The notes: generated by a model not told the origin, from the letters alone. A stretch of 64,000 nucleotides of DNA from Candidatus Wolfebacteria bacterium GW2011_GWA1_44_24 (GCA_001001115.1 LCIO01000001.1:236339-300338), one strand, 5' to 3'; shown: positions 18,167-64,000, numbered from the stretch's first letter. Made by a program: numbers and translations.

Positions 18167-18721
18167 TTATATCAATACTATCTCTTTTTTGGGAATTTTT
18201 ATAGCGCACTTGGCGCAAAAGAAAATATAGTCTTCCGGAGAGAAAAAATTTATTTCTTTCCCGCGGCAAAAAACGCAAGCCGCGTGAGCCGGGTCAAAGC
18301 CCAAAATTTTGATGATTAACCGATAAATGGCTTTTTCTTTTTTTTGATAAATAAGCCAATTGGCGACAATCTCTTTCATTGCCAGCCATAATTTGCGGTC
18401 CGGCTGAAGATCAAAAGTCATTTCCTTGAAAAATTTGATAAAATTCAAAAGCCTGAAAAAAACCGCTGGATTTTCCTTAAAATTGGCCGAATTAGCGATA
18501 GTTAAAGCGTCGACTATCTGAAAGCCGTTTTTTTCCACCAGCCGGACTTGAATAAAATTAAGCGGCTCCAGGTGTCCGTTTAATTTTGAGGTGATTCTTT
18601 TGACGCTTTTGGCTTTAGCGGTTATTTTCCCCAAATCCTCGGTGTATAAAATTATTCTCGCGTCCAAATCGCCGCTGTCTTCCTTGTCCAGTACCAGCGC
18701 TTCGGTAAAGTATTCTACCAT
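18167..18721 (-). CDS. recO: DNA repair protein RecO
   Basis: Start at internal MVEYFTEALVL (OB-fold N-terminus). C-terminal zinc finger CVFCRGK…CAKC typical of RecO. Confidence 0.7.
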   Translation of the reverse strand: MVEYFTEALVLDKEDSGDLDARIILYTEDLGKITAKAKSVKRITSKLNGHLEPLNFIQVRLVEKNGFQIVDALTIANSANFKENPAVFFRLLNFIKFFKEMTFDLQPDRKLWLAMKEIVANWLIYQKKEKAIYRLIIKILGFDPAHAACVFCRGKEINFFSPEDYIFFCAKCAIKIPKKEIVLI

Positions 18722-18985
18722 AACGCGAATTTTAGCAGATCGAAAGAGTGATTTCCATTCCAATTTTACATAAGCTTGACAAAATAAAACCACTGGTTAT
18801 AATTCCTTAAAATCAATCGCGAATTATATAGCCCCGAAAGGGGTTTTTTGATTGGGATTTATAAATAAATTATAAAAATTACGAGTGTTGTTTACATTTT
18901 CCAGCAGATTGCCTTTCAGAACCAGAATATTTTTGTTCCAGCGACAAAAATTTCTTCCCCCTCGGCGCGCTGGCTCCGACTATTG

Positions 18986-19064
18986 ATGTAAAGATTTTTG
19001 AAACCTAAACGGAAGCGCAGTCCGCCAGCTGGCGGACGTGAGCGGGTTGAAAAAACTTTACATT
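18986..19064. other. Conserved hairpin element, copy 1: ~55-nt core GAAACCTAAACGGAAGCGCAGTCCGCCAGCTGGCGGACGTGAGCGGGTTGAA flanked by an inverted repeat (TGTAAAGATTTTTG / AAAAAACTTTACA)
   Basis: Near-identical core (1 nt difference, in the inner hairpin loop) is present at 24769-24822. Internal perfect hairpin GTCCGCC-AGCT-GGCGGAC. The outer stems differ in sequence between copies but are self-complementary in each. Confidence 0.6.
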
Positions 19065-19098
19065 TTCCGTTGCAGAGTAAACAACGCTTGAAAATCTT

Positions 19099-19563
19099 AT
19101 GAATAAATACAATAAATATCTGGCGGCTCTCTTGGTTGTGATGAGTTTTAACGTTCTTCAAACCAATGTTTTCCAGCCAAAAATAGCCGTTATTAACGAA
19201 AATTATTCGCTAGACGACTCTTTAACGGCCCAAAATCGGCCTGTTTTGACGCTTGAGAATCAAAAAGTTGCCAAGCCAAAAATCTTAAAAGTTTGGTTAA
19301 CCGCTTATTCCAGCACGCCCGAGCAAACCGATGAAACGCCGTTTATCACGGCTTCTGGAAGTTATGTCAGGAACGGCGTTGTGGCGGCCAATTTCCTGCC
19401 AATGGGAGCTAAAATCCGCATTCCAGAAGTTTTCGGCAGCCAAATTTTCGTCGTTGAAGACCGAATGCATCCCAGATATCAGAACTATATTGATATCTGG
19501 TTTCCCGATGCCGAACAAGCCAAAAATTTCGGCAAAAAAATAAGTAAAATAGAAATCCTATAA
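19099..19563 (+). CDS. 3D-domain (MltA/YabE-like) cell-wall-binding protein, secreted
   Basis: Signal peptide/TM (LAALLVVMSF). C-terminal …WLTAYSS…ETPFITASG…GVVAANFLPMGAKIRIP…IFVVEDRMHPRYQNYIDIW matches the 3D domain (conserved D residues). Confidence 0.75.
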   Translation: MNKYNKYLAALLVVMSFNVLQTNVFQPKIAVINENYSLDDSLTAQNRPVLTLENQKVAKPKILKVWLTAYSSTPEQTDETPFITASGSYVRNGVVAANFLPMGAKIRIPEVFGSQIFVVEDRMHPRYQNYIDIWFPDAEQAKNFGKKISKIEIL

Positions 19564-24343: not shown

Positions 24344-25789
24344 ATGAAAATGAATCCGAAAATATTTAAAGCTTACGATATCCGCGGCAAATACCCGCGC
24401 GAAATAAACGAAAATATTGTAATGGAAATAGTGGATAAATTTTTACCCCGCAAGTTAAAAATTAAAATTATTATCGGCCGCGACGCTCGTTTAAGTTCGC
24501 CGAATTTATACAAAGCGGCAATCAAACGATTAAAAATTCAATCCGCCGACTGGCGGAGGAAATTAAAAATTGTCCCGGCGGGATTGATTACCACACCGAT
24601 GCTTTCTTTTTTGGTCAATTATCTGAAAGCTGATTTCGGCATAATGATTACCGCCAGCCATAACCCAAAAGAATACAATGGTTTGAAAATCGTCGGCAAA
24701 AACGCCATGCCGATAAGCGGAAAAGATGTTTTACAATTATTATAAACAACAAATACAAAATTGTTTCTGAAACCTAAACGGAAGCGCAGTCCGCCAACTG
24801 GCGGACGTGAGCGGGTTGAAGAAACAATTTTGTATTCGTTGTTGACGATGGCTGTTATGAATTATATAAAAATTTACGCTGATTTTCTTAAAAAATTTTT
24901 ACGACCTCGACAAAAATTGAAGGTGGTTTTTGATTGTTCCAATGGCGTTGCCGGCCCGATAATTAAACAGCTGACAACCGACAGCCAACAACTGAAAACT
25001 TTTTTGATTAATGAAAAATCCGATGGCAATTTTCCGGCTCATGGGCCGAATCCGCTTAAACCCAACGCGTTAAAACAACTCCAAAATGAAGTCAAAAAAC
25101 ACAAAGCTACTCTCGGAATAATTTTTGACGCCGACGGCGACAGAGTATTTTTCATCGATAATCGCGGCCGCTTTGTTGACCCGGACGTGATTTCTCGATT
25201 GTTAATTTGGCACCTTAAGCCAAAAAAAGTTGTTATCGATGTCCGGACGGGATGGCTCGTAAGAAAATTCAAAATTAAAAATTCAAAATTAAAAATTCAC
25301 GAATCAAGCGTTGGGCATTATTTCATAAAAAAATTAATGCGCAAAACTAATGCGGATTTAGGCGTCGAACGTTCGGGGCATTATTATTTCGGACCAAACA
25401 TTCATAATCAAAAAAATCTTTATTTTGATTCGGGAATCCTTGCCGCCATTGAAACAATCAATGCGGTTTCAAAATTGCCGTATTCTTTGGCGGATTTCAG
25501 CGATTTATTTCCGCCGCTTTATCGCTCCGGCGAAATCAACATAAAAATCGGCCAGCCGCAAAATATAATAAAAAAAATTGAAAAAAAATTGAAAAATCAA
25601 GCAATAAAAACTTCTCGCCTTGACGGCTTAACGATGGAATTCAATCCTTCGGCAAGCCCGGGAAAAGCCTGGCGGTTTAATCTGCGGCCGTCAAACACCG
25701 AACCGCTGGTCAGATTAAATATTGAAGCAACCGATAAACGATTTCTTGACAATTTTCTTAAAAAGATTTATTCTTTAATTAGCAATTAG
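24344..25789 (+). pseudogene. manB: Phosphomannomutase/phosphoglucomutase (α-D-phosphohexomutase) interrupted in frame by a ~98-nt hairpin element that introduces a single TAA stop (24743-24745). ORF-track pieces: 24344..24745 and 24761..25789.
   Basis: Fragment 1 has KAYDIRG and the active-site TASHNP…YNGLKIV. Fragment 2 has KVVFDCSNGVAGP (Mg loop region), GIIFDADGDR, …GVERSGHYYF (sugar-binding). Both fragments are in the same frame (24761-24344=417=3×139) and are separated only by the TAA plus the element translation. Confidence 0.75.
24747..24844. other. Conserved hairpin element, copy 2, inserted inside the PMM/PGM gene: same core as copy 1, flanked by a different inverted repeat (CAACAAATACAAAATTGTTTC / GAAACAATTTTGTATTCGTTG)
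   Basis: Core identical to 19000-19052 except CAGCTG→CAACTG. Flanking 21-nt near-perfect inverted repeat. The insert keeps the host gene frame but is preceded by an in-frame TAA. Confidence 0.65.
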
Positions 25790-30074: not shown

Positions 30075-30204
30075 GTGCAGTATTCTTGAATTAGTCCGAA
30101 CGCATTTCGTCCTGAGCTTGTCGAAGGGTGAGGAAGTCCCACCGCGAAAATTCGGAAAGGCGGCGGAGCCGCACCGCTGACAATTTCAAGTTTTTCTTTG
30201 GCGG
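30075..30204. repeat. Intergenic modular repeat, copy A (modules M1 GGTGCAGTATTCTTGAATTAGTCCGAACRCATTTCG … M2 GCGGAGCCGCACCGCTGACAATTTCAAGTTTTTCTTTGGCGGC)
   Basis: Same two end modules at 51518-51656 with a different GC-rich middle. M2 also occurs at 52812-52852. Confidence 0.7.
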
Positions 30205-31029
30205 CTACTTTATCTTTTTAACTTTAATCCCATGTTTATGCAAGAGTTTAATCCCATCATCATTTCCATAAGGATGCAAATAATAAACTTCCGAAATATG
30301 TTTTTTCAAAATTTCTTGAGAGCAAAGAATACATGGCGGAATAAGAATATAAAGTTTTGTCTTTTTCAAATCAACACCTTTAGATTCTGCTTTTTTGATA
30401 ACAATATGCTCGGCATGTATGTCTTTGCTCTCAATGTTGTCCGACTCGGCAATAATCTTTCCTTGCAAAGTAATAAGCGCGGAAATTTTTCCAATAGATG
30501 CCTTGCTATGGTCAGCCAAAAAATACAAGCGTCGAACAATTGGATTTTTAATTTTGGAATAATCGCGCTGTGCCAATATCTGTTTGGCAAGAAAACTCGT
30601 GCTGGAGCAGCGCACGTCTTTCTCAAGGAAAACTACTTTAATATTTGGAAATTTGTCGTTAATCAAACGAGCGCGGTATTTTCTATACTTCATCGTCTCT
30701 TTCGAGAAAACGTAGTTTCGCGGTTTGATAATTTCCAAATATTTTTCGTAGTGAGACGGCTTATCGAGAATCAAAACAAAATCAACAAATTCAAGTGCCG
30801 CGACAATTTCAGCACGACGTTTTTCACTAACGATGGGGCGATTAAATCCCTTCCGAACCCTAACTGTTTTGTCCGCTTGGACGATTACGACGAGGGGTCT
30901 GCCGACTTCGCTACATTTCCGCAAATAGCGGAGGTGGCCAGCATGGAACAAATCAAAAACGCCACCGACGAGCGTTGCTGTATGTGGCTTGAGCGTCTTT
31001 TTGAGCTTTGTAAGGGTAATAATTTTCAT
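30205..31029 (-). CDS. Fusion protein: N-terminal cytidylyltransferase-fold nucleotidyltransferase (archaeal RibL/FAD-synthase-like, HxGH motif) + C-terminal CMP/dCMP-type zinc deaminase domain (HAE…PCxxC)
   Basis: N-terminus GGVFDLFHAGHLRYL plus …NRPIVSEKRRAEIVAALEFVDFV (compare RibL …RKPIIPEEQRREMVEALKPVD). C-terminus HAEHIVI…LIPPCILCSQ. Preceded by module M4 TTTTGGGGGAAGAAAATTTTTT directly 5' of the ATG. Confidence 0.6.
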   Translation of the reverse strand: MKIITLTKLKKTLKPHTATLVGGVFDLFHAGHLRYLRKCSEVGRPLVVIVQADKTVRVRKGFNRPIVSEKRRAEIVAALEFVDFVLILDKPSHYEKYLEIIKPRNYVFSKETMKYRKYRARLINDKFPNIKVVFLEKDVRCSSTSFLAKQILAQRDYSKIKNPIVRRLYFLADHSKASIGKISALITLQGKIIAESDNIESKDIHAEHIVIKKAESKGVDLKKTKLYILIPPCILCSQEILKKHISEVYYLHPYGNDDGIKLLHKHGIKVKKIK

Positions 31030-33250: not shown

Positions 33251-33670
33251 ATGATTAAATCATTTTCCGGAAATAAATTTTTATATTTGATTGCGATATT
33301 TATCATTTTTTTAAACATTCTGTTTTTTATCGGTATTAATAATATATCAGCGGCGGAGCCTCCTCCCGGCGGCACAACATACACCACTCCCTCTAAAAGC
33401 GGCGGTTTATACGACCCCTTGGGGGGACAAACCATCACCAGTTTAATCCAAAATCTTATCGGGTTTCTCATTAAAATCGGCGCGCCTATCGTGGCTTTGA
33501 TGGTTTTATACGGCGGTTTTTTGATATTGACCGCCGGCGACAAACCCGAGCAGATTACCAAGGGAAAAAACACCATTCTTTACGCGGCTATTGGCTATAC
33601 AATTATCTTGTGTTCTTGGGGCGTTATTTATATAATTCAACAAGTACTGGGAGCGAAATTAATAAAATGA
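33251..33670 (+). CDS. Small secreted two-TM-helix protein, subfamily B (…YGGFLILTAG…); first gene of the tandem array
   Basis: Promoter TTGATA-16-TATAAT upstream. Signal peptide/anchor then AEPPPGG…, TM1 IGAPIVALMVLYGGFLILTAG, loop DKPEQITKGKN, TM2 TILYAAIGYTIILCSWGVIYII. Paralog of 35319..35708 (-). Confidence 0.7.
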   Translation: MIKSFSGNKFLYLIAIFIIFLNILFFIGINNISAAEPPPGGTTYTTPSKSGGLYDPLGGQTITSLIQNLIGFLIKIGAPIVALMVLYGGFLILTAGDKPEQITKGKNTILYAAIGYTIILCSWGVIYIIQQVLGAKLIK

Positions 33671-33999
33671 AAATCTTAAACAAAATTTCATTATTTTCAA
33701 CAATTTTTTATTTAATGGGCATTTTCCCATTAATTGGTTTTGCTCAAGAATCTCCCGTTAAAAGCATTGATGATGTAATGAATGTTTTAAAAAGCATTGT
33801 TAATGTGATGTACACGGCTTTCTTTATTGTGGCGATTATGTTTATAATCCTTGCGGCTTTTAATTATTTAACCGCCCAAGACGATCCGGAAAAAATCAAA
33901 AGCGCCACTCGCCAGATAATGTGGGCGGCGGTGGCGATAGCGGTGGCTTTAATTTCGGTAGGATTTAATAAAATTGTAGAAAGTTTTATAAAACCATAA
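33667..33999 (+). CDS. Small secreted two-TM-helix protein, subfamily A (…LAAF(N/T)YLTAQxDPEKIK…), array gene 2
   Basis: ATGA-coupled to gene 1. Signal peptide …PLIGFA|QE. TM1 …MYTAFFIVAIMFIILAAFNYLTAQDDPEKIKSATRQIMWAAVAIAVALISVGF. 56-nt stretch identical to gene 3. Confidence 0.7.
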   Translation: MKILNKISLFSTIFYLMGIFPLIGFAQESPVKSIDDVMNVLKSIVNVMYTAFFIVAIMFIILAAFNYLTAQDDPEKIKSATRQIMWAAVAIAVALISVGFNKIVESFIKP

Positions 34000-34461
34000 A
34001 TGTTTTTGAATATAAAAAAAATCTTTATTTTATTATTGATATTGGGAATTATTTTCCCGATTTTTTCATTTGCTGCGTTTCCTGTGGGAGAAGTTGCTGG
34101 GCCTGGAGGAAAATTACCAGAAGGCGCGGGAATTAAAGAAGTTTCTGATTTAGTTGGCATTCTTACAAAAGTTCTTGCGTGGATATATACAATTCTTTTT
34201 ATTATTGCGATTATATTCATCCTCATTGCCGCTTTCACTTATTTAACCGCTCAAGCGGACCCGGAAAAAATCAAAACTGCCACTCGCCAGATAATGTGGG
34301 CGGCGGTGGCGATAGCGGTGGCTTTAATTTCGGTGAGTATTAATGTGATAATAAGCAATTTTATAAGCCCAAGCGATAGTGGAGTTTTAGTAAATCCTAG
34401 CGGACAAAGTCCTTATTATTTAGATGTAGATCTTGGAATTTTCAATAAACCGCGAAAATAA
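34000..34461 (+). CDS. Small secreted two-TM-helix protein, subfamily A, array gene 3 (longest; extra C-terminal tail)
   Basis: Start codon immediately after the gene 2 stop. Signal peptide …IFSFA|AFPV. Conserved core IAAFTYLTAQADPEKIKTATRQIMWAAVAIAVALISV. Confidence 0.7.
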   Translation: MFLNIKKIFILLLILGIIFPIFSFAAFPVGEVAGPGGKLPEGAGIKEVSDLVGILTKVLAWIYTILFIIAIIFILIAAFTYLTAQADPEKIKTATRQIMWAAVAIAVALISVSINVIISNFISPSDSGVLVNPSGQSPYYLDVDLGIFNKPRK

Positions 34462-34467
34462 ATAAAG

Positions 34468-34836
34468 ATGAAAAAAGTTTTAATTTTATCAATATTTTTA
34501 TCAATATTTATTGCAAATAATTCTTTTGCCATAACTGCCGGAACAATTCCTTCAGCCGAGCAATTGGGCGTTTCTAACGCCCCGAAAATTGAAAAAGTTG
34601 ACACATTAGTTAATATTATTAGAAATATCGTAAAGTGGACATATATAATTTTCTTTATCGTGGCCGTATTTTTTATAATTTTAGCGGCTTTCACTTATTT
34701 AACCGCTCAAGCGGACCCAGAAAAAATCAAAACTGCCAATAAACAAATTCTTTACGCGGTTATCGCCATTGTTATCGCTCTTTTAGCCATCGGCTTTGAT
34801 ACGATAATAAAATCATTTCTGCAAAGCGGCGCTTGA
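34468..34836 (+). CDS. Small secreted two-TM-helix protein, subfamily A, array gene 4
   Basis: Signal peptide …NNSFA|ITAG. Core NIVKWTYIIFFIVAVFFIILAAFTYLTAQADPEKIKTANKQILYAVIAIVIALLAIGFDTII. Confidence 0.7.
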   Translation: MKKVLILSIFLSIFIANNSFAITAGTIPSAEQLGVSNAPKIEKVDTLVNIIRNIVKWTYIIFFIVAVFFIILAAFTYLTAQADPEKIKTANKQILYAVIAIVIALLAIGFDTIIKSFLQSGA

Positions 34837-34904
34837 TTGCTTTTTAGCTTGAATGTTTTAATATATTAATATGTATTGAAAAGGTCGCAAATGCTTATTT
34901 AATT

Positions 34905-35258
34905 ATGAAAACAAAAATTTTTATTATTGCCGCGGGATTATTGGCAGTTTCGGCAATCGCGGGAAATGTCGCTTTAGCGATTCAAATTCCGGGTATCAGT
35001 CAGGTCGGCCCCACATCGGTGACCGGAACAGTGGATGTGATTAAAAATATTGTTAAGTGGGTTTATATTCTATTCTTCATCATCGCCGTTCTTTTCATTA
35101 TTTTGGCGGCTTTCAATTATTTGACTGCCCAGGGCGACGAAGAAAAAGTCAAAACCGCGAAAAATCAGATTATTTACGCGGTAGTGGCGATTGTCGTGGC
35201 TTTGCTGGCCGTCAGTTTTGACACCATTATCAGCAATTTCCTGCAAAGCGGTCAATAA
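34905..35258 (+). CDS. Small secreted two-TM-helix protein, subfamily A, array gene 5
   Basis: Signal peptide …NVALA|IQIP. Core NIVKWVYILFFIIAVLFIILAAFNYLTAQGDEEKVKTAKNQIIYAVVAIVVALLAVSFDTII. Confidence 0.7.
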   Translation: MKTKIFIIAAGLLAVSAIAGNVALAIQIPGISQVGPTSVTGTVDVIKNIVKWVYILFFIIAVLFIILAAFNYLTAQGDEEKVKTAKNQIIYAVVAIVVALLAVSFDTIISNFLQSGQ

Positions 35259-35278
35259 ATTCTCAAAATTTTCCAAAC

Positions 35279-35316
35279 AAAAAACCCCGTTAGAATTTTC
35301 TATCGGGGTTTTTGTT
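35279..35316. terminator. Bidirectional terminator between convergent array genes
   Basis: AAAAACCCCG-ttagaattttctat-CGGGGTTTTT (A-run/T-run flanked). Confidence 0.5.
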
Positions 35317-35318
35317 TA

Positions 35319-35708
35319 TCAGCAGAATTTTCCCGCCTTTCCCCATTCCCAGGGCTTGAAGCTGCCTCCTCCTAAAATTTCTATAACTTCCCTAATAATC
35401 AGCCAGGCGCCCACGGCGATTAAAACGCCGATAATCGCCGATTGGATGATTTTCCGGCCTTGGGCCGCCCGTTCGGCCGATTCTCCGGCGGTCAATATTA
35501 CAAATCCGCCGTAAACAATGAAAATCACCGTAACGGGAATGGCGATGTTGTAAAGAGCGAAATTAATGACATTTTCAGCCAAAGTTTTCAGATGGCAAAA
35601 ATTGCACGCCGGTTCTCCGGCGCCGCCGCACGGCACAAGACCGGCGGCTTGAACAGCCATAACAGAAAACACGAAACAGAAAATGGAAAATAGAATTATT
35701 TTTTTCAT
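35319..35708 (-). CDS. Small secreted two-TM-helix protein, subfamily B (…YGGFVILTAG…), convergent with the array
   Basis: Signal peptide …AVQA|AGLVPCGG. Cys-rich N-terminus (CGGAGEPACNFC). TM1 IAIPVTVIFIVYGGFVILTAGESAERAAQGRK, TM2 IIQSAIIGVLIAVGAWLII. Paralog of 33251..33670. Confidence 0.7.
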   Translation of the reverse strand: MKKIILFSIFCFVFSVMAVQAAGLVPCGGAGEPACNFCHLKTLAENVINFALYNIAIPVTVIFIVYGGFVILTAGESAERAAQGRKIIQSAIIGVLIAVGAWLIIREVIEILGGGSFKPWEWGKAGKFC

Positions 35709-44243: not shown

Positions 44244-45494
44244 ATGAAATTCATCGCCGACCTTCACATCCACTCCAAATATTCCCGCGCCACTTCTCCA
44301 AACATGGTTTTGGAAGAACTGGACCGCTGGGCTGACGACAAAGGCATTTTGGTTATGGGAACCGGAGATTTCACCCATCCGAAATGGTTTAAGGAGATTA
44401 AAGAAAAATTAGAACCGGCCGAACCCGGGCTTTTTAAGTTGAAGCCACAATACAAGAAAAAAACCTTCAAAGAAACTCTGGCTGAAACGCGATTTTTGTT
44501 AAGCGTGGAAATTTCCGGTATTTACAAAAAAAATGGAAAAGTTCGCAGAATCCATAATTTAATTTTTAGCCCGAATATTAAAATAGCGGAAGAAATAAAC
44601 AGTCAGTTGGGTAAAATCGGCAATTTAAAATCCGACGGCCGGCCGATTCTGGGACTTGATTCCGAAAGGTTGGCTGAAATCATTTTTAACATCAACTCCG
44701 AAGCGGCAATTATCCCGGCTCACGCCTGGACGCCGTGGTTCAGTATTTTCGGCTCAATGTCCGGTTTTGATTCCATTGAAGAATGTTTTGGCAAATACGC
44801 TGATAAAATTTTTGCCATTGAAACCGGCTTGAGCAGCGACCCGGCAATGAACTGGCAGCTTTCAAAACTGGACAATATTGCTCTGATTTCCAATTCCGAT
44901 TCTCACAGCTTGGAAAAAATCGGCCGCGAAGCCAACATATTCGACACAAAATTGTCTTATAAGGGAATAATAGATGCGATAAAAAGCGGCGCGCCAAAAT
45001 TTGTCGCCACCATCGAATTTTTCCCGGAAGAAGGCAAATATCATTATGACGGCCACAGAAACTGCGATGTCATTTTCCATCCCGACGAAACAGCCAAACA
45101 CAACGGCATTTGTCCGGTCTGTAAAAAACCGCTGGTCATCGGCGTAATGAATCGCGTCGCCAAACTAGCGGACAAAAAAAACCTAAAAATAGAAATTGAA
45201 AATAATATCCGTAAATATGATGATTTTACGCCTTACTATAACTTGGTGGCGTTGAGAACCATTATCGCCGAAGCTTTTGCTGTTGGTCCGACTTCCAAAA
45301 AAGTAAAAGCCGAATACGAAAAATTGGTAAAAATATTCGGCAATGAACTTAAAATCCTTATGGAAACTGATTATGACGATTTAAAATCCGCCGCCGGCGT
45401 CAAAATCGCCGAAGGAGTAAAAAGAGTCAAGGAGGGCAAATTAAAAATCCGTCCCGGCTATGACGGCGAATACGGAGAAGTCAAAATTTTTTAA
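44244..45494 (+). CDS. PHP-domain nuclease, endonuclease Q (EndoQ)-like, with C-terminal zinc ribbon
   Basis: Start trimmed to MKFIADLHIHSKYS (the ORF-track start lies inside the tRNA). Motifs shared with archaeal EndoQ: DLHIHS.YS, GTGD, IHNLIFSP, AHAWTPW, SNSDSHS, GKYHYDGHRNC, CPVCKK, and C-terminal …IRPGYDGEYGEVKIF. Confidence 0.7.
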   Translation: MKFIADLHIHSKYSRATSPNMVLEELDRWADDKGILVMGTGDFTHPKWFKEIKEKLEPAEPGLFKLKPQYKKKTFKETLAETRFLLSVEISGIYKKNGKVRRIHNLIFSPNIKIAEEINSQLGKIGNLKSDGRPILGLDSERLAEIIFNINSEAAIIPAHAWTPWFSIFGSMSGFDSIEECFGKYADKIFAIETGLSSDPAMNWQLSKLDNIALISNSDSHSLEKIGREANIFDTKLSYKGIIDAIKSGAPKFVATIEFFPEEGKYHYDGHRNCDVIFHPDETAKHNGICPVCKKPLVIGVMNRVAKLADKKNLKIEIENNIRKYDDFTPYYNLVALRTIIAEAFAVGPTSKKVKAEYEKLVKIFGNELKILMETDYDDLKSAAGVKIAEGVKRVKEGKLKIRPGYDGEYGEVKIF

Positions 45495-52714: not shown

Positions 52715-52852
52715 AAAAAATTTTCTTTTACCCAAAATTCAAAATATGGTTTCCTCCAGAGGTGGGCAGGCGAGCCGATGTTTTTCTCTGGGTTCTTTTG
52801 CGGTTTTGAGCGGAGCCGCACCGCTGACAATTTCAAGTTTTTCTTTGGCGGC
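52715..52852. repeat. Intergenic modular repeat, copy C (M4-like + M3 GAGCCGATGTTTTTCTCYGGGTTCTTTTGCGGTTTTGAGCGG + M2)
   Basis: M3 is shared with 53670-53718. M2 is identical to copy A. Confidence 0.7.
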
Positions 52853-52905: not shown

Positions 52906-53634
52906 CTACTTGCTTACATCGTAAGCAACGCGGACATTAGACCCCTCGGGTTTTATTTTTCTGATTGTTATTCCGCGAATATCTGCAAGATTGTTTACAT
53001 GTGTCCCGCCACAAGGAACGCCGAAGTCTCCATACATCACAACGCGAGCAGGTTTTCCCTCTAGCAGATATTCAGGGACATGATGGCAAACTTCGTGCAT
53101 CTTTTCCTTCGGCATAAAAATAAGTTTGGTTGGGCGATTTTCACCAATAAATTTATTGCACAAATTTTCAATGTCGGTTTTCAATTTTTCCTTATCCAGT
53201 TCGCCAAGACTTCCGGCGTATTCAACATAAGGACCTTCTGGAAAATGATAGCCCTTGCCGGGCACCCAATTAAGTTTCAAGGCAGTAACCGCCATGTCAA
53301 CAACATGACCGGCAGAGTTAATACGACTGTTGAGTGCGCGGCGTGTTTCATCAACTACACACTTGACGGTTTCTCCGGTTTGAAAAGTTACGGAATCAAA
53401 TTTTCCGATGTGCTTCACTACTCCCTCAACAAAGCGCACTTCTTCAACGGAAAATTTTCCAGAAGGTCTTTCGATTACGCCCTTGTCGTATGGCTGACCG
53501 CCACCTTGCGGATAGAAAACAGTTTGATCCAAAAGAACAATATCCTTACCGTTTTCTTGCGTTACCTCCAAAACCTTTGCTTCAGTAGCAAGGAGATTGA
53601 AATCTTCCAAATAAAGCAGTTTCGTTGGTTGCAT
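52906..53634 (-). CDS. alaX: AlaX-like alanyl-tRNA editing protein (Ser/Gly-tRNA(Ala) deacylase; Thr/Ala-RS second additional domain)
   Basis: Zinc-binding HxxxH (…AGHVVDMAV…) and CxxxH (…PCGGTH…) motifs. 242 aa. M4 module directly upstream of ATG. Confidence 0.75.
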   Translation of the reverse strand: MQPTKLLYLEDFNLLATEAKVLEVTQENGKDIVLLDQTVFYPQGGGQPYDKGVIERPSGKFSVEEVRFVEGVVKHIGKFDSVTFQTGETVKCVVDETRRALNSRINSAGHVVDMAVTALKLNWVPGKGYHFPEGPYVEYAGSLGELDKEKLKTDIENLCNKFIGENRPTKLIFMPKEKMHEVCHHVPEYLLEGKPARVVMYGDFGVPCGGTHVNNLADIRGITIRKIKPEGSNVRVAYDVSK

Positions 53635-53640
53635 AGGATT

Positions 53641-53760
53641 AAAAAATTTTCTTCCCCCAAAATTAAAATATGGTTCGAGCCGATGTTTTTCTCCGGGTTC
53701 TTTTGCGGTTTTGAGCGGCGCGGCTTCGCCGCCTTTCCGATCAAACTTGCAATTTCCTAC
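53641..53760. repeat. Intergenic modular repeat, copy D (M4 + M3 + inverted M2-like segment) abutting the tRNA-Arg 3' end
   Basis: M4 identical to 31039-31061. M3 matches 52772-52812. Segment CCGATCGGAAAGGCGGCGAAGCCGCG is the reverse complement of part of copy A. Confidence 0.65.
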
Positions 53761-61530: not shown

Positions 61531-62886
61531 ATGAACTCCGAACAACTCTGGGAAACAACTTTATCGGAACTTGAACTCCAAATCTCGCGAGCCAACTTTC
61601 TGACTTGGCTTAAAAACAGCCGCTTGCTCGAAAAAAAAGACGGTGGAGAAGTTTTGATCGGCCTGGCGAATAATTTTGCCAAAGAATGGGTGGAAAATAA
61701 ATATCACAAGATGATTTTTGAGATACTTAAAAACCATGACGACTCCGTTAAAAAAATTGAATATACGGTTGTCGGCTCAAAAATATCTTTTTCGGAAAAA
61801 AATTTTTCAGAGAACAAAGAACGTCAACCAACTCTTCCGGAATTCAAAGTTGATCCCGAGACGGGACTGCACCCCCGATACGTTTTAAATTCGTTCGTTG
61901 TCGGCTCTTCCAACGAGCTAGCTTACGCGGCCAGTCTCGCGGTTGTTAAAAATGTAGGATCAAAATATAATCCGCTTTTTATTTATGGCGGCACCGGCCT
62001 CGGCAAAACCCACCTGATTCAGGCCATCGGCAATGAAATTAAAAAAATTTATAAAAATAAAGTTAAGGTTAAATATGTGCATTGCGAAAAATTCGTCAAT
62101 GAAGTGGTTAGCGGCATTCGCAATAAAAGAATGGAGGATATTAAAGATAGATATCGCAGTATTGATGTTTTAATTATTGACGACATTCAATTCATCGGCG
62201 GCAAAGAAAGAAGTGAGGAAGAATTTTTCCACACCTTCAACGTTTTGCATGAAAATAACAAACAAATCATTATTTCCTCCGACCGGCCGCCGGCCTCTTT
62301 GCCGACGCTTCACGAACGGCTGCGTTCGCGTTTTGAGGGCGGAATGGCCGCGGACATCACTTACCCGGACTTTGAAACGCGAATGGCTATTATTAAAACC
62401 AAGTTGGCGGAAATAAAAGGCGATTTGCCGGATAATATCTGCCAAATTATCGCTTCCCGGGTGCAAAGAAACATTAGAGAAATTGAGGGAATTTTGAATA
62501 AAATCTTGTTTTATGGAGAAACAAAACGCATCGGGTTGGATTCTAAAACAGTTGAAGAAATAATCGACAACACCATCAAGCGGGTGGATAAAAAGGTGAC
62601 TCCCAATCAAATAATTGGGGCGGTGGCTAATTTTTTTGAAGTTTTGCCCGAAGATATCTCTAACCACTCTCGCCGGAAAAAAGTGATTGAACCGAGGCAA
62701 ATTTCTATTTTCCTGCTTCGGGAAATATTGGGGATGTCTTATCCGGATATTGGGGAAAAAATAGGGAAAAGAGACCACACCACCGCCATTCACTCTTATG
62801 AGAAAATTTTAAGGGAAACCAACAAAAATCAACCGTTAAACCAAAAAATCGCGCTAATAAAAGAATTAATTTACGAAAATCAATAA
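61531..62886 (+). CDS. dnaA: Chromosomal replication initiator DnaA
   Basis: Walker A GGTGLGKTHL, Walker B LIIDDIQF, sensor/box VII, C-terminal DnaA-box-binding HTH (…VIEPRQISIFLLREILGMSYPDIGEKIGKRDHTTAIHSYEKI…). Confidence 0.95.
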   Translation: MNSEQLWETTLSELELQISRANFLTWLKNSRLLEKKDGGEVLIGLANNFAKEWVENKYHKMIFEILKNHDDSVKKIEYTVVGSKISFSEKNFSENKERQPTLPEFKVDPETGLHPRYVLNSFVVGSSNELAYAASLAVVKNVGSKYNPLFIYGGTGLGKTHLIQAIGNEIKKIYKNKVKVKYVHCEKFVNEVVSGIRNKRMEDIKDRYRSIDVLIIDDIQFIGGKERSEEEFFHTFNVLHENNKQIIISSDRPPASLPTLHERLRSRFEGGMAADITYPDFETRMAIIKTKLAEIKGDLPDNICQIIASRVQRNIREIEGILNKILFYGETKRIGLDSKTVEEIIDNTIKRVDKKVTPNQIIGAVANFFEVLPEDISNHSRRKKVIEPRQISIFLLREILGMSYPDIGEKIGKRDHTTAIHSYEKILRETNKNQPLNQKIALIKELIYENQ

Positions 62887-63039
62887 ACTTATTAACCCCC
62901 GCTTATTCACAAGCAGTCTGGGTTTAAAAATTAAAAACAGTTAATTTAGTAATGGACATTTTAAGTTTATCCACAAATTAACATCCCCCAACTAAAACTA
63001 CTAATTATTTATTTATATAGTTATTATATAATTGTTATT
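62887..63039. promoter_or_regulatory. oriC candidate in the dnaA-dnaN intergenic: perfect DnaA box TTATCCACA, a second TTATTCACA, and an AT-rich DNA-unwinding element
   Basis: …cgcTTATTCACAagc… ; …agtTTATCCACAaatt… ; then …ctaattatttatttatatagttattatataattgttatt immediately 5' of dnaN. Confidence 0.7.
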
Positions 63040-64000
63040 ATGAAATTTATTGTTCTTAATAAAAATCTTAAAGATGGGTTGCGGGCAATAGAGCGGATTG
63101 CCGAAGAAAATTCTAATCTGCCGATTTTAAAGAATTTTTTAATTGAATCGTTTGAAAATAAAATTAAACTGGCGGCGACCAATCTTGAACTGGGAATAAT
63201 TAGTTTTATTTCTGGGAAAATTATTGAAAACGGCGGATTAACAATACCGCTGAATTTATTTAATTCAATAATTAATAATCTTCAAGTTGAAAGAATTAAT
63301 TTGGAGTTAACTAAAAATAATAAATTATCAATAAAAACCGACAACTATCAGGCGGAAATTCAAGGAATTAAAAAAGAAGAATTCCCAATTATTCCAAAAA
63401 TAAAAAACGACGAATTTTATTTAAAAATTCAAAATTCGGAACTAAAAAACATTTTATCGTTAATTGTCGGCGCCGCGGCCCAAGAAAACAGGCCAGAACT
63501 CAACGGTATTTTATTGGACTACCAAACAACTTTATTAAAATTAGCCGCCACCGACACCTTCCGGCTTTCGGAAAAAACTATTTTCAACACCCAGTTTGAA
63601 TCAAATATAGATAAAAATTTTAAAATAATCATCCCCCTAAAAACAATCCAAGAAGTTATTCGGGGATTACAATTTAATGAAGAAGGAAAAACCGCTATTT
63701 TTTTTGACGCCAATCAAATTCTTTTCAAAACCGAAAACACGGAAATAATTTCTCGGCTGATTAACGGCGAGTATCCTGATTATCAGCAGATTATTCCCAA
63801 AAATTTTGAAACGGAAATATCCCTAAACAAAGATGAATTAATCGGCGCCCTTAAACTAGCCGGTGTTTTTACAGACCAACTCAACGAAATAAAATTTATT
63901 ATCAAAGAAGGCGCTAAAAACATAGAAGTATTTTCTTTTAATCAATCTCTGGGAGAAAACCGGTATTTGATTCCGGCAAAAATAAAAGGAGCGGCGGCGG
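63040..64000 (+). CDS. dnaN: DNA polymerase III β sliding clamp (dnaN), 3'-truncated by the window edge
   Basis: MKFIVLNKNLKDGLRAIERI…LKLAATNLELGI…; three-domain β-clamp pattern and position immediately after dnaA. Confidence 0.85.
   Translation, partial: MKFIVLNKNLKDGLRAIERIAEENSNLPILKNFLIESFENKIKLAATNLELGIISFISGKIIENGGLTIPLNLFNSIINNLQVERINLELTKNNKLSIKTDNYQAEIQGIKKEEFPIIPKIKNDEFYLKIQNSELKNILSLIVGAAAQENRPELNGILLDYQTTLLKLAATDTFRLSEKTIFNTQFESNIDKNFKIIIPLKTIQEVIRGLQFNEEGKTAIFFDANQILFKTENTEIISRLINGEYPDYQQIIPKNFETEISLNKDELIGALKLAGVFTDQLNEIKFIIKEGAKNIEVFSFNQSLGENRYLIPAKIKGAAA

Follow-up and report, generated by a model that had tools for sequence, protein, structure and literature searches.

Two hairpin repeats in a Candidatus Wolfebacteria contig as probable short members of a MITE-like palindromic repeat family of Patescibacteria

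The two copies in the window and their loci

The window, i.e. the whole 64-kb stretch of DNA analysed here, contains two copies of a hairpin repeat. RecO_N was confirmed by Pfam for positions 18167-18793, next to copy 1, while the downstream ORF at 19099-19563 gave no match in a Pfam search. Thus, of the divergent recO/3D-domain intergenic region described in the initial annotation, the recO side is confirmed and the 3D domain is not. The elements of copy 1 are:

18986-19063, + strand: copy 1 of the hairpin repeat, a short form without terminal repeats (covariance model 72.1 bits, E 4e-18)
18986-18993 paired with 19056-19063, + strand: outer arm of copy 1, ATGTAAAG with CTTTACAT
Inner layout of copy 1: T5/A5 helix, then tandem G.A (19000-19001 with 19049-19050), then helix AACCT/GGGTT
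19007-19014, + strand: 8-nt bulge, AAACGGAA
Above the bulge: GC, G.A and CA/UG with a bulged G
19020-19037, + strand: tip hairpin, GTCCGCC-AGCT-GGCGGAC
19064-19075, + strand: TTTTCCGTTGCAG, leftover of a longer right arm, the partner of which, CTGCAACGGAAAA, is present in the metagenome locus L089 and deleted in the window

L089 is a metagenome variant of the copy-1 locus, the left arm of which extends 12 nt further and pairs with the segment that is orphaned at 19064-19075 of the window. Compared with window positions 18950-18990, L089:640-770 contains about 90 extra nucleotides, including the full left arm of the repeat. The window has lost the left-arm segment together with these ~90 nt. 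The extra nucleotides of L089 also hold a palindrome, GGCGCGCTGG...CTCCGAC-TATT-GTCGGAG...CCAGCGCGCC, and the deletion in the window relative to L089 has its end within both hairpins. No target duplication was detected at copy 1. An empty site for this copy was sought by synteny with the relative L172, in which synteny stops at ftsK.

A perfect sigma-70 consensus promoter (TTGACA-16-TATAAT) is located on the + strand at 18776-18803, upstream of copy 1 and of the ORF at 19099, and is followed after about 27 nt by a terminator-like hairpin with a T run (18830-18845). Promoter and hairpin (18776-18845) could constitute a leader, an attenuator or a tiny RNA.

Copy 2 had been placed inside a PMM gene. 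It is found instead between an ORF for domain I and an ORF for domains II-IV, which are separate in relatives as well:

24344-24745, + strand: PMM/PGM ORF1, upstream cistron, domain I (Pfam PF02878, E 2.6e-28)
24541-24558, + strand: core-less mini-palindrome ATCCGCCGACTGGCGGAG within ORF1, the same module as in the tips of both copies
24735-24745, + strand: AATTATTATAA, left copy of a candidate target-site duplication, holding the TAA stop (24743-24745) of ORF1
24746-24843, + strand: copy 2 of the hairpin repeat (covariance model 85.6 bits, E 5e-22)
Arms of copy 2, + strand, core 24764-24825: ACAACAAATACAAAATTGTTTCTG and GAAGAAACAATTTTGTATTCGTTGTT
24789-24806, + strand: tip of copy 2, GTCCGCC-AACT-GGCGGAC
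24844-24859, + strand: 16-nt tail, GACGATGGCTGTTATG, between right arm and right direct repeat
24848-25789, + strand: PMM/PGM ORF2, downstream cistron, domains II-IV (Pfam PF02879/PF02880/PF00408)
24860-24869, + strand: AATTATATAA, right copy of the candidate target-site duplication

The nearest PMM homologues are 58-66% identical, some of them are labelled Wolfebacteria, and nearly all are annotated as domain II-IV proteins of ~300 aa. In the homologues' contigs inspected from three relatives, a separate domain-I ORF overlaps the second ORF by 13-19 nt in another frame, and the junction is empty, with no copy of the repeat. Since relatives without the element show the same split, the PMM gene was already divided, and copy 2 separates its two cistrons; stop-codon readthrough, translational bypass and intron-like removal were dropped on these grounds. 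In the relatives, the gene may be either really split or read by a programmed frameshift. Domain II-IV-only homologues form more than 80 protein clusters, a few of which are labelled Wolfebacteria (window 24344-25789; L063, L065, L067; L069-L071). Unsplit PMM versions, two of them labelled Harrisonbacteria, contain unrelated GC-rich palindromic inserts, in frame, at the same linker. The mini-palindrome ATCCGCCGACTGGCGGAG is in frame in domain I, where it corresponds to 3-4 extra residues (IQSADWRRKLK) in an alignment with homologues; the module is also nested in the tip of L153:1374-1461.

The direct repeat flanking copy 2 (10/11 nt) is imperfect, and reading AATTATTATAA and AATTATATAA as its target-site duplication is therefore tentative. 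The 16-nt tail GACGATGGCTGTTATG probably belongs to the insert. Two ATGs in it, at 24848 and 24857, are in frame with ORF2, precede the conserved NYIKIYADFL and are available to this cistron; the putative ORF2 start was set by alignment with the ORF2 starts of relatives (MDYIKIY...). Copy 2 would have inserted into the overlap of the two cistrons, and both would have survived, with the duplicated target preserving the stop of ORF1 and the inserted tail supplying an in-frame ATG for ORF2.

Both window copies end in their own palindromic arms and lack the terminal repeats of their long relatives. They have a 62-nt core in common (18995-19056 and 24764-24825, 95% identical; repeat family D11), and within the core hairpin described in the initial annotation a loop base is indeed the sole difference (AGCT in copy 1, AACT in copy 2). 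The outer arms of the two copies have no mutual similarity and each pair is self-complementary, in line with the conserved centre and unrelated flanks described there. In the segment TTTYTG...GAARAAA, the T/C and A/G differences between the copies are compensatory (U-A to C-G). Copy 1 folds with -33.3 kcal/mol (z -4.0) and copy 2 with -50.0 kcal/mol (z -8.9); in both cases, 0 of 200 shuffles were equally stable. An independent covariance model, trained on 13 copies that all come from outside the window, confirms that only two copies are present, as it yielded no further match with E<0.07 in the rest of the 64 kb. A match at 44431-44499 (E 0.21), within an ORF, was taken as chance.

Several other features of the window were noted. 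The genes dnaA (61531-62886) and dnaN (62965-63999) are both present, which places the replication origin probably near 61.4 kb; negative GC skew across almost all of the window and a majority of genes on the - strand are consistent with a single replichore. A cluster of small paralogous genes at 33610-35708, three tested members of which match a type IV secretion pilin family, accounts for the 222-nt repeat family D1 (33777-35251). A 43-nt repeat with exact copies and a 54-nt repeat with 91% identity (30163-30205, 52771-52852, 53676-53729) adjoin tRNA genes and a short AlaRS-related (tRNA-synt_2c/SAD) ORF at 52906-53634, and may represent duplicated ends of an AlaX-like gene.

Extent and conserved anatomy of the family

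The pattern AAACGGAAGCGC-N(8-30)-GYGAGCGGGTT was scanned against 185,579 species genomes, one per species. This yielded 62 loci, 56 of them in Patescibacteria MAGs (up to 15 loci per MAG), and the remaining six matches, outside CPR, lack the hairpin. The CPR MAGs with the repeat are labelled Jorgensenbacteria, Wolfebacteria, Paceibacterota or Saccharibacteria, or are unclassified. The covariance model detects 69 copies in these loci, including eight that do not fit the pattern. With a looser pattern, in which GGAAGCGCAG and CGT were left unconstrained, 100 groundwater metagenome loci were retrieved, from which the model recovers 100 copies; although free in the pattern, the GGAAGCGCAG and CGT positions are still conserved in most distinct metagenome sequences. 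The copies expected beyond the window thus exist, 169 in total by the covariance model, in Patescibacteria MAGs and groundwater metagenomes. Viral contigs scanned with the core pattern gave 0 matches, a BLAST search of a long element against phage and plasmid collections gave none, and a literature search on the core sequence, CPR repeats, MITEs and ribozymes found nothing relevant. The repeat family is previously undescribed.

The unit is 75-180 nt in size, without an ORF of its own, and is located at contig ends in many cases; one MAG contains twelve identical cores. From 5' to 3', variable arms are followed by Y-U-G-A opposite U-G-A-R, which forms a tandem G.A, by the helix AACCY/GGGUU, by the 8-nt bulge AAACGGAA, and by two G-C pairs, a G.A mismatch, CA/UG and a bulged G. 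The tip hairpin varies freely across the family in sequence and in length (roughly 10-40 nt). The asymmetric centre, consisting of the bulge AAACGGAA, GCGCA/GUGAGC and the tandem G.A, is nearly invariant, and the tandem G.A is missing from some Wolfebacteria copies. Tips are often perfect palindromes (CGCG, AGCT, TCGCGA or GCCGGC centres) or GNA triloops. GNA triloops are typical of stable DNA mini-hairpins, and the tips may hint at hairpins at the DNA level. Short core-less hairpins with a CUGAA...UUGAAG foot (tandem G.A) or with terminal repeats occur at L065:4339-4373, L063:4608-4641 and L032:2698-2745, and could be deletion derivatives or footprints of the repeat.

The covariation of the stems that had been proposed from the two window copies extends to the family. 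Paired cells make up 97.9% in a set of 58 distinct sequences and 97.5% in a second set of 71, compared with 80-83% in column shuffles and 32-56% with slid partners. Two-sided changes of pairs amount to 204 and 196 cells in the two sets and affect 16 and 14 of 23 pairs, counts that come from copies which are not phylogenetically independent; even the nearly invariant AACC/GGUU helix has two compensated variants. Because of this non-independence, and because palindromes self-correct by template switching, the covariation indicates that complementarity is maintained and not that the RNA has a function.

The mismatches are distributed asymmetrically between the strands. On the core-sense strand, G.U-type mismatches exceed A.C-type mismatches in the modelled pairs (79 vs 28) and in the next 14 arm positions (76 vs 19). 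About half of the copies have U.G at the Y-G pair, and rare variants in 'invariant' pairs are wobble-compatible (GGAAGTGC, GCGTGG). The G.U excess and these variants suggest that one strand is selected to fold.

Mobility and genomic context

Long relatives of the window copies, present in several MAGs, have a constant length of 144-145 nt and termini, CTTTGAATTACGAAA and TTTCGTAATTCAAAG, that form terminal inverted repeats (TIRs). Exact 7-bp direct repeats, AT-rich, are found at a fixed offset outside these termini in 13 elements (1.9 expected), and AT-rich flanking direct repeats of at least 6 nt in 28 of 77 elements (about 8 expected). The short forms L074 and L034 have clean 10-nt duplications at their flanks. 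A TA target duplication of the IS630 type was superseded by the measured 7-bp duplication. These long elements contain the same core, which contradicts the earlier reading of the conserved centre as a sign of structural selection 'rather than' of a classical TIR-bearing MITE. Filled and empty sites were identified in related contigs with flanking proteins that are 83-96% identical (for example in the pairs L111/L077, L077/L111, L003/L128, L021/L160, L074/L171, L160/L017).

The arms of copy 1 recur, together with an identical core, in L076, where the right flank is another one, and L089 has a longer version of them. L074, L101, L009, L054, L060 and others have arms homologous to those of copy 2, and the differences are compensated. 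Since each arm type recurs elsewhere, the arms are subfamily sequence carried by the element and not target palindromes; judged by their sequence, the arms of the two window copies represent two widespread subfamilies. An insertion into pre-existing palindromes, which had been considered as an alternative, is thus not the source of the arms, but small palindromes are nested in hairpin loops. A 20-bp perfect palindrome, CCTGCCTGCCGGCAGGCAGG, occurs inside repeats at two positions, one separating CTGA from AACCC and the other in the tip loop (L007:1660-1690, L052, L021:7400-7482, L104:9545-9640), and looks like a second, tiny palindrome-seeking insert. The tip module of the window copies, TCCGCCAACTGGCGGA, is nested within another tip in L153.

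Among 146 non-redundant copies, 32 are sense and 31 antisense to co-directional genes, 15 are located between convergent and 10 between divergent genes, and the neighbours are unrelated housekeeping genes. This random orientation and the unrelated neighbours indicate that the repeat is not a gene-linked RNA; an orientation or position consistent with respect to a class of genes, as for cis-regulatory RNAs, is not seen (32 sense vs 31 antisense). One copy, in L022:2461-5718, is located in the 23S-5S rRNA spacer, antisense to the rRNA operon.

Some copies reside within genes. In ligA, a copy is inserted in frame just before the KxDG motif in three contigs (L015, L135, L169). A GT2 glycosyltransferase gene carries an in-frame copy in four contigs, antisense in three (L029, L107, L094) and sense in the fourth (L093), which indicates that the copy was flipped in place and stayed open. 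At the GT2 site of three genomes, arms and core are 95-100% identical and the coding flanks 77-86%, while the tip is 40-80% identical and has a 9-nt indel. A selfish insert in decay would not usually show such conservation of arms and core, for which gene conversion or selection is needed.

Copies also share positions between genomes. Three MAGs, with NusA proteins about 60% identical, have a copy immediately after nusA, not always in the same orientation; two MAGs have one in the argS-smpB interval, and two have one upstream of mraZ. The argS-smpB pair has flanks that are about 90% identical and an identical core, its mid-arms differ, and its outer asymmetric module is inverted with respect to the core. 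The two possible arrangements of outer module and core are about equally common within single MAGs. The differences in the argS-smpB pair and these mixed orientations point to inversion between arms, exchange among copies, or both.

None of the 57 ORFs of the window is a transposase, HUH enzyme or recombinase according to Pfam. A recurrent partner gene was sought by clustering the ORFs of 440 kb of loci, and no transposase family emerged; the recurrent families are ValRS, NusA, MraZ, SmpB, ArgRS, an ABC transporter and other housekeeping proteins. An autonomous insertion sequence with matching termini was not seen in the window or in ~1.1 Mb of loci.

Relation to known systems and probable nature of the repeat

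The two window copies are probably short members of a Patescibacteria-wide, non-autonomous, MITE-like family of mobile palindromic repeats with RPE-like behaviour. The family is multi-copy and dispersed, has a long form with TIRs and 7-bp duplications, and differs in presence or absence between close relatives. Copies between genes occur in either orientation, and copies within genes are in frame, persist across species and are able to flip.

The definition of MITEs summarised in PMC3184786 was used as the criterion, and the family agrees with it in size (<~300 bp), in lacking a transposase gene, in being multi-copy and in presence/absence polymorphism. Like the bacterial MITEs Correia/NEMIS, ERIC, RUP and Nezha, the CPR repeat is short, non-coding and multi-copy and folds into a long hairpin; it likewise has TIRs and target-site duplications (in the long forms), filled and empty sites, and either intergenic orientation. 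Its sequence is unrelated to those MITEs and its host belongs to Patescibacteria, a phylum absent from the 2024 MITE review PMC10969869. The family further differs by an internal asymmetric core, conserved across subfamilies with diverged arms, and by common short forms without TIRs, both window copies among them; its parent insertion sequence was not found in the window or the loci.

The bcr1 repeats of the Bacillus cereus group are ~150 nt long, with short flanking direct repeats, strain-variable positions and compensatory changes that keep the fold (PMC3184786). The CPR repeat resembles them in its ~150-nt scale and in these other respects. Unlike bcr1, which has two independent stem-loops and 5-bp direct repeats, it folds into a single rod-like hairpin, hypervariable at the tip, and has duplications of 7 bp, and while transcription of bcr1 was shown, the CPR repeat is described here from sequence alone. 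RPEs are palindromic repeats of ~100-150 bp that occur in frame in unrelated housekeeping genes and are kept in orthologues (PMC10969869). The ligA and GT2 copies of the CPR repeat behave alike, whereas the window copies themselves are not in frame in genes, most copies are intergenic, and there is no sequence relation. To our knowledge, RPEs have not been reported to invert in situ within an ORF or to combine a nearly invariant core with a tip that is hypervariable.

REP sequences are palindromes of 20-40 bp, one end of which bears the tetranucleotide GTAG or CGTC (PMC3733652). In the copy alignments, the feet of the CPR repeat read GCGCAG... and ...CGTGAGC, without GTAG or CGTC. REP/REPIN elements are similar in being dispersed imperfect palindromes with conserved imperfections and a likely role of the folded single strand; the CPR repeat differs by TIRs, target duplications and a much longer unit, and a RAYT gene is not among the window ORFs. 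PATEs, derived from IS200/IS605, have no TIRs, no target duplication and distinct left and right subterminal hairpins, whereas the CPR family has TIRs, 7-bp duplications and a single central hairpin. Integron attC sites share with it variable-sequence hairpins with conserved structure and unpaired bases, a variable terminal structure, and AAC/GTT triplets near the hairpin foot. The attC core sites R''/R' are RYYYAAC/GTTRRRY and are located in cassette arrays adjoining intI. Against this consensus, the left CTGAAAC of the CPR repeat misfits RYYYAAC, the right GTTGAAG fits at 6/7 positions, and the copies are dispersed and bidirectional.

Other resemblances were discarded. A kink-turn or box C/D-like motif at CUGA...UGAAGA lacks the 3-nt bulge and has a symmetric tandem G.A, and some Wolfebacteria copies do not contain it. 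Pairing does not fit tRNA-like, SRP-like or group II domain V structures, and Rfam is silent on them, and TIGR arrays are tandem whereas the CPR family is dispersed. Overall, the repeat family behaves like a MITE and like RPEs and does not appear to be a riboswitch, a known ribozyme or a REP/IS200-type element.

For the MITE-like family, the proposed mechanism is that long forms would be moved by a DDE-type transposase encoded elsewhere, making staggered 7-bp cuts. Short forms, window copies included, would be deletion or truncation derivatives or older minimal units. Arm complementarity and flipping of the centre would result from recombination or template switching between the arms, with additional selection on the fold of one strand. 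The invariant centre would most likely be a recognition module, in which a candidate protein acts on the folded core-sense strand, as ssDNA or RNA, and its recognition would serve the propagation of the element itself or its tolerance by the host. DDE cut-and-paste transposition requires neither a conserved internal core nor a strand-specific fold. A core that is nearly invariant across divergent lineages counts against a plain DDE reading, and the strand-specific fold is at odds with mechanism and context, since a DDE-type mechanism needs no fold and orientation to host transcription is random.

These features leave some room for function in the centre itself. About 25 positions are unpaired or non-canonical and nearly invariant, and the helices that enclose them covary and differ in length. 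This would suit an RNA carried by the repeat, either a new self-cleaving ribozyme or a protein-binding module, that is active when the core-sense strand is transcribed; the one-strand excess of G.U over A.C, the wobble substitutions within 'invariant' pairs (GGAAGTGC, GCGTGG) and the perfect consensus promoter on the same strand upstream of copy 1 point in this direction, and small ribozymes elsewhere are often embedded in repeats. Such an RNA is nevertheless quite improbable. At the gathering score, Rfam recognised in the window and 16 loci only tRNA, rRNA and tmRNA elsewhere (in the window, five tRNAs only) and none at the element, and at E<=10 copy 1 and one long relative gave only chance-level miRNA/snoRNA-like matches, with all known self-cleaving classes included in the search. 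A riboswitch or self-cleaving ribozyme, for which an Rfam comparison had been suggested, thus finds no family, no gene association and no orientation bias. Furthermore, half of the copies are antisense to their neighbours, in-gene copies are translated in frame in both orientations, the simple rod offers no evident way for two-loop docking, and many tips are perfect DNA palindromes. A wider version, in which the centre would be an undescribed one-strand module, i.e. a small self-cleaving or ligating ribozyme or a docking site for a CPR protein, that rides on or has created the MITE family, is unlikely; it would include, with the same low probability, that the centre is kept intact even within protein-coding genes.

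The apparent selection of one strand to fold would also agree with an ssDNA hairpin element that a Y1 HUH transposase mobilises, as in REP/REPIN-RAYT or IS200/IS605 (PATE) systems, or with a palindrome-targeting element. So would the bulge and mismatches that persist in an otherwise self-correcting palindrome, the common GNA triloops at the tips, the mini-palindromes nested in loops and the short forms without terminal repeats. IS200/IS605 and REP elements, however, have neither terminal inverted repeats nor target duplications, whereas the long forms have clear TIRs and 7-bp target duplications. As the hairpin foot carries no GTAG/CGTC tag and no Y1 transposase gene was seen in the window or the loci, the membership in these groups put forward in the initial annotation was not upheld; the arms belong to the element and do not come from the target, and there is no orientation bias relative to gene direction. 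This origin is very unlikely. A host-domesticated structural element, selected at fixed positions and rarely spreading, as a protein-binding site or an insulating or terminating hairpin, is improbable as well. It would account for orthologous positions in divergent genomes (downstream of nusA, argS-smpB, upstream of mraZ), for GT2 arms and core that are 95-100% identical next to coding flanks of 77-86%, and for a core conserved across Jorgensen-, Wolfe-, Pacei- and Saccharibacteria-labelled MAGs, although such conservation can be explained by gene conversion between copies. Against this role stand insertions that are clearly recent and keep their target duplications intact, close relatives in which the site is empty, near-identical copies within one genome that suggest bursts, interrupted coding sequences, orientation flips at orthologous sites and the presence of just 2 copies in the 64-kb window.

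CPR genomes are small and densely packed, and a repeat that fills spacers, breaks assemblies and splits or extends ORFs affects both their annotation and their assembly. In-frame insertion into essential genes likewise affects the annotation of uncultured CPR bacteria, in which the covariance model could directly flag these repeats. The combination of a conserved centre, covarying arms, a hypervariable tip, flipping and wobble bias makes the family a good case for distinguishing selection on structure from self-templated palindrome repair. Of all features, only the conserved asymmetric centre could still conceal something new: if it were indeed a ribozyme or a protein-binding motif, it would represent a new class of functional nucleic acid that is specific to a major bacterial radiation.
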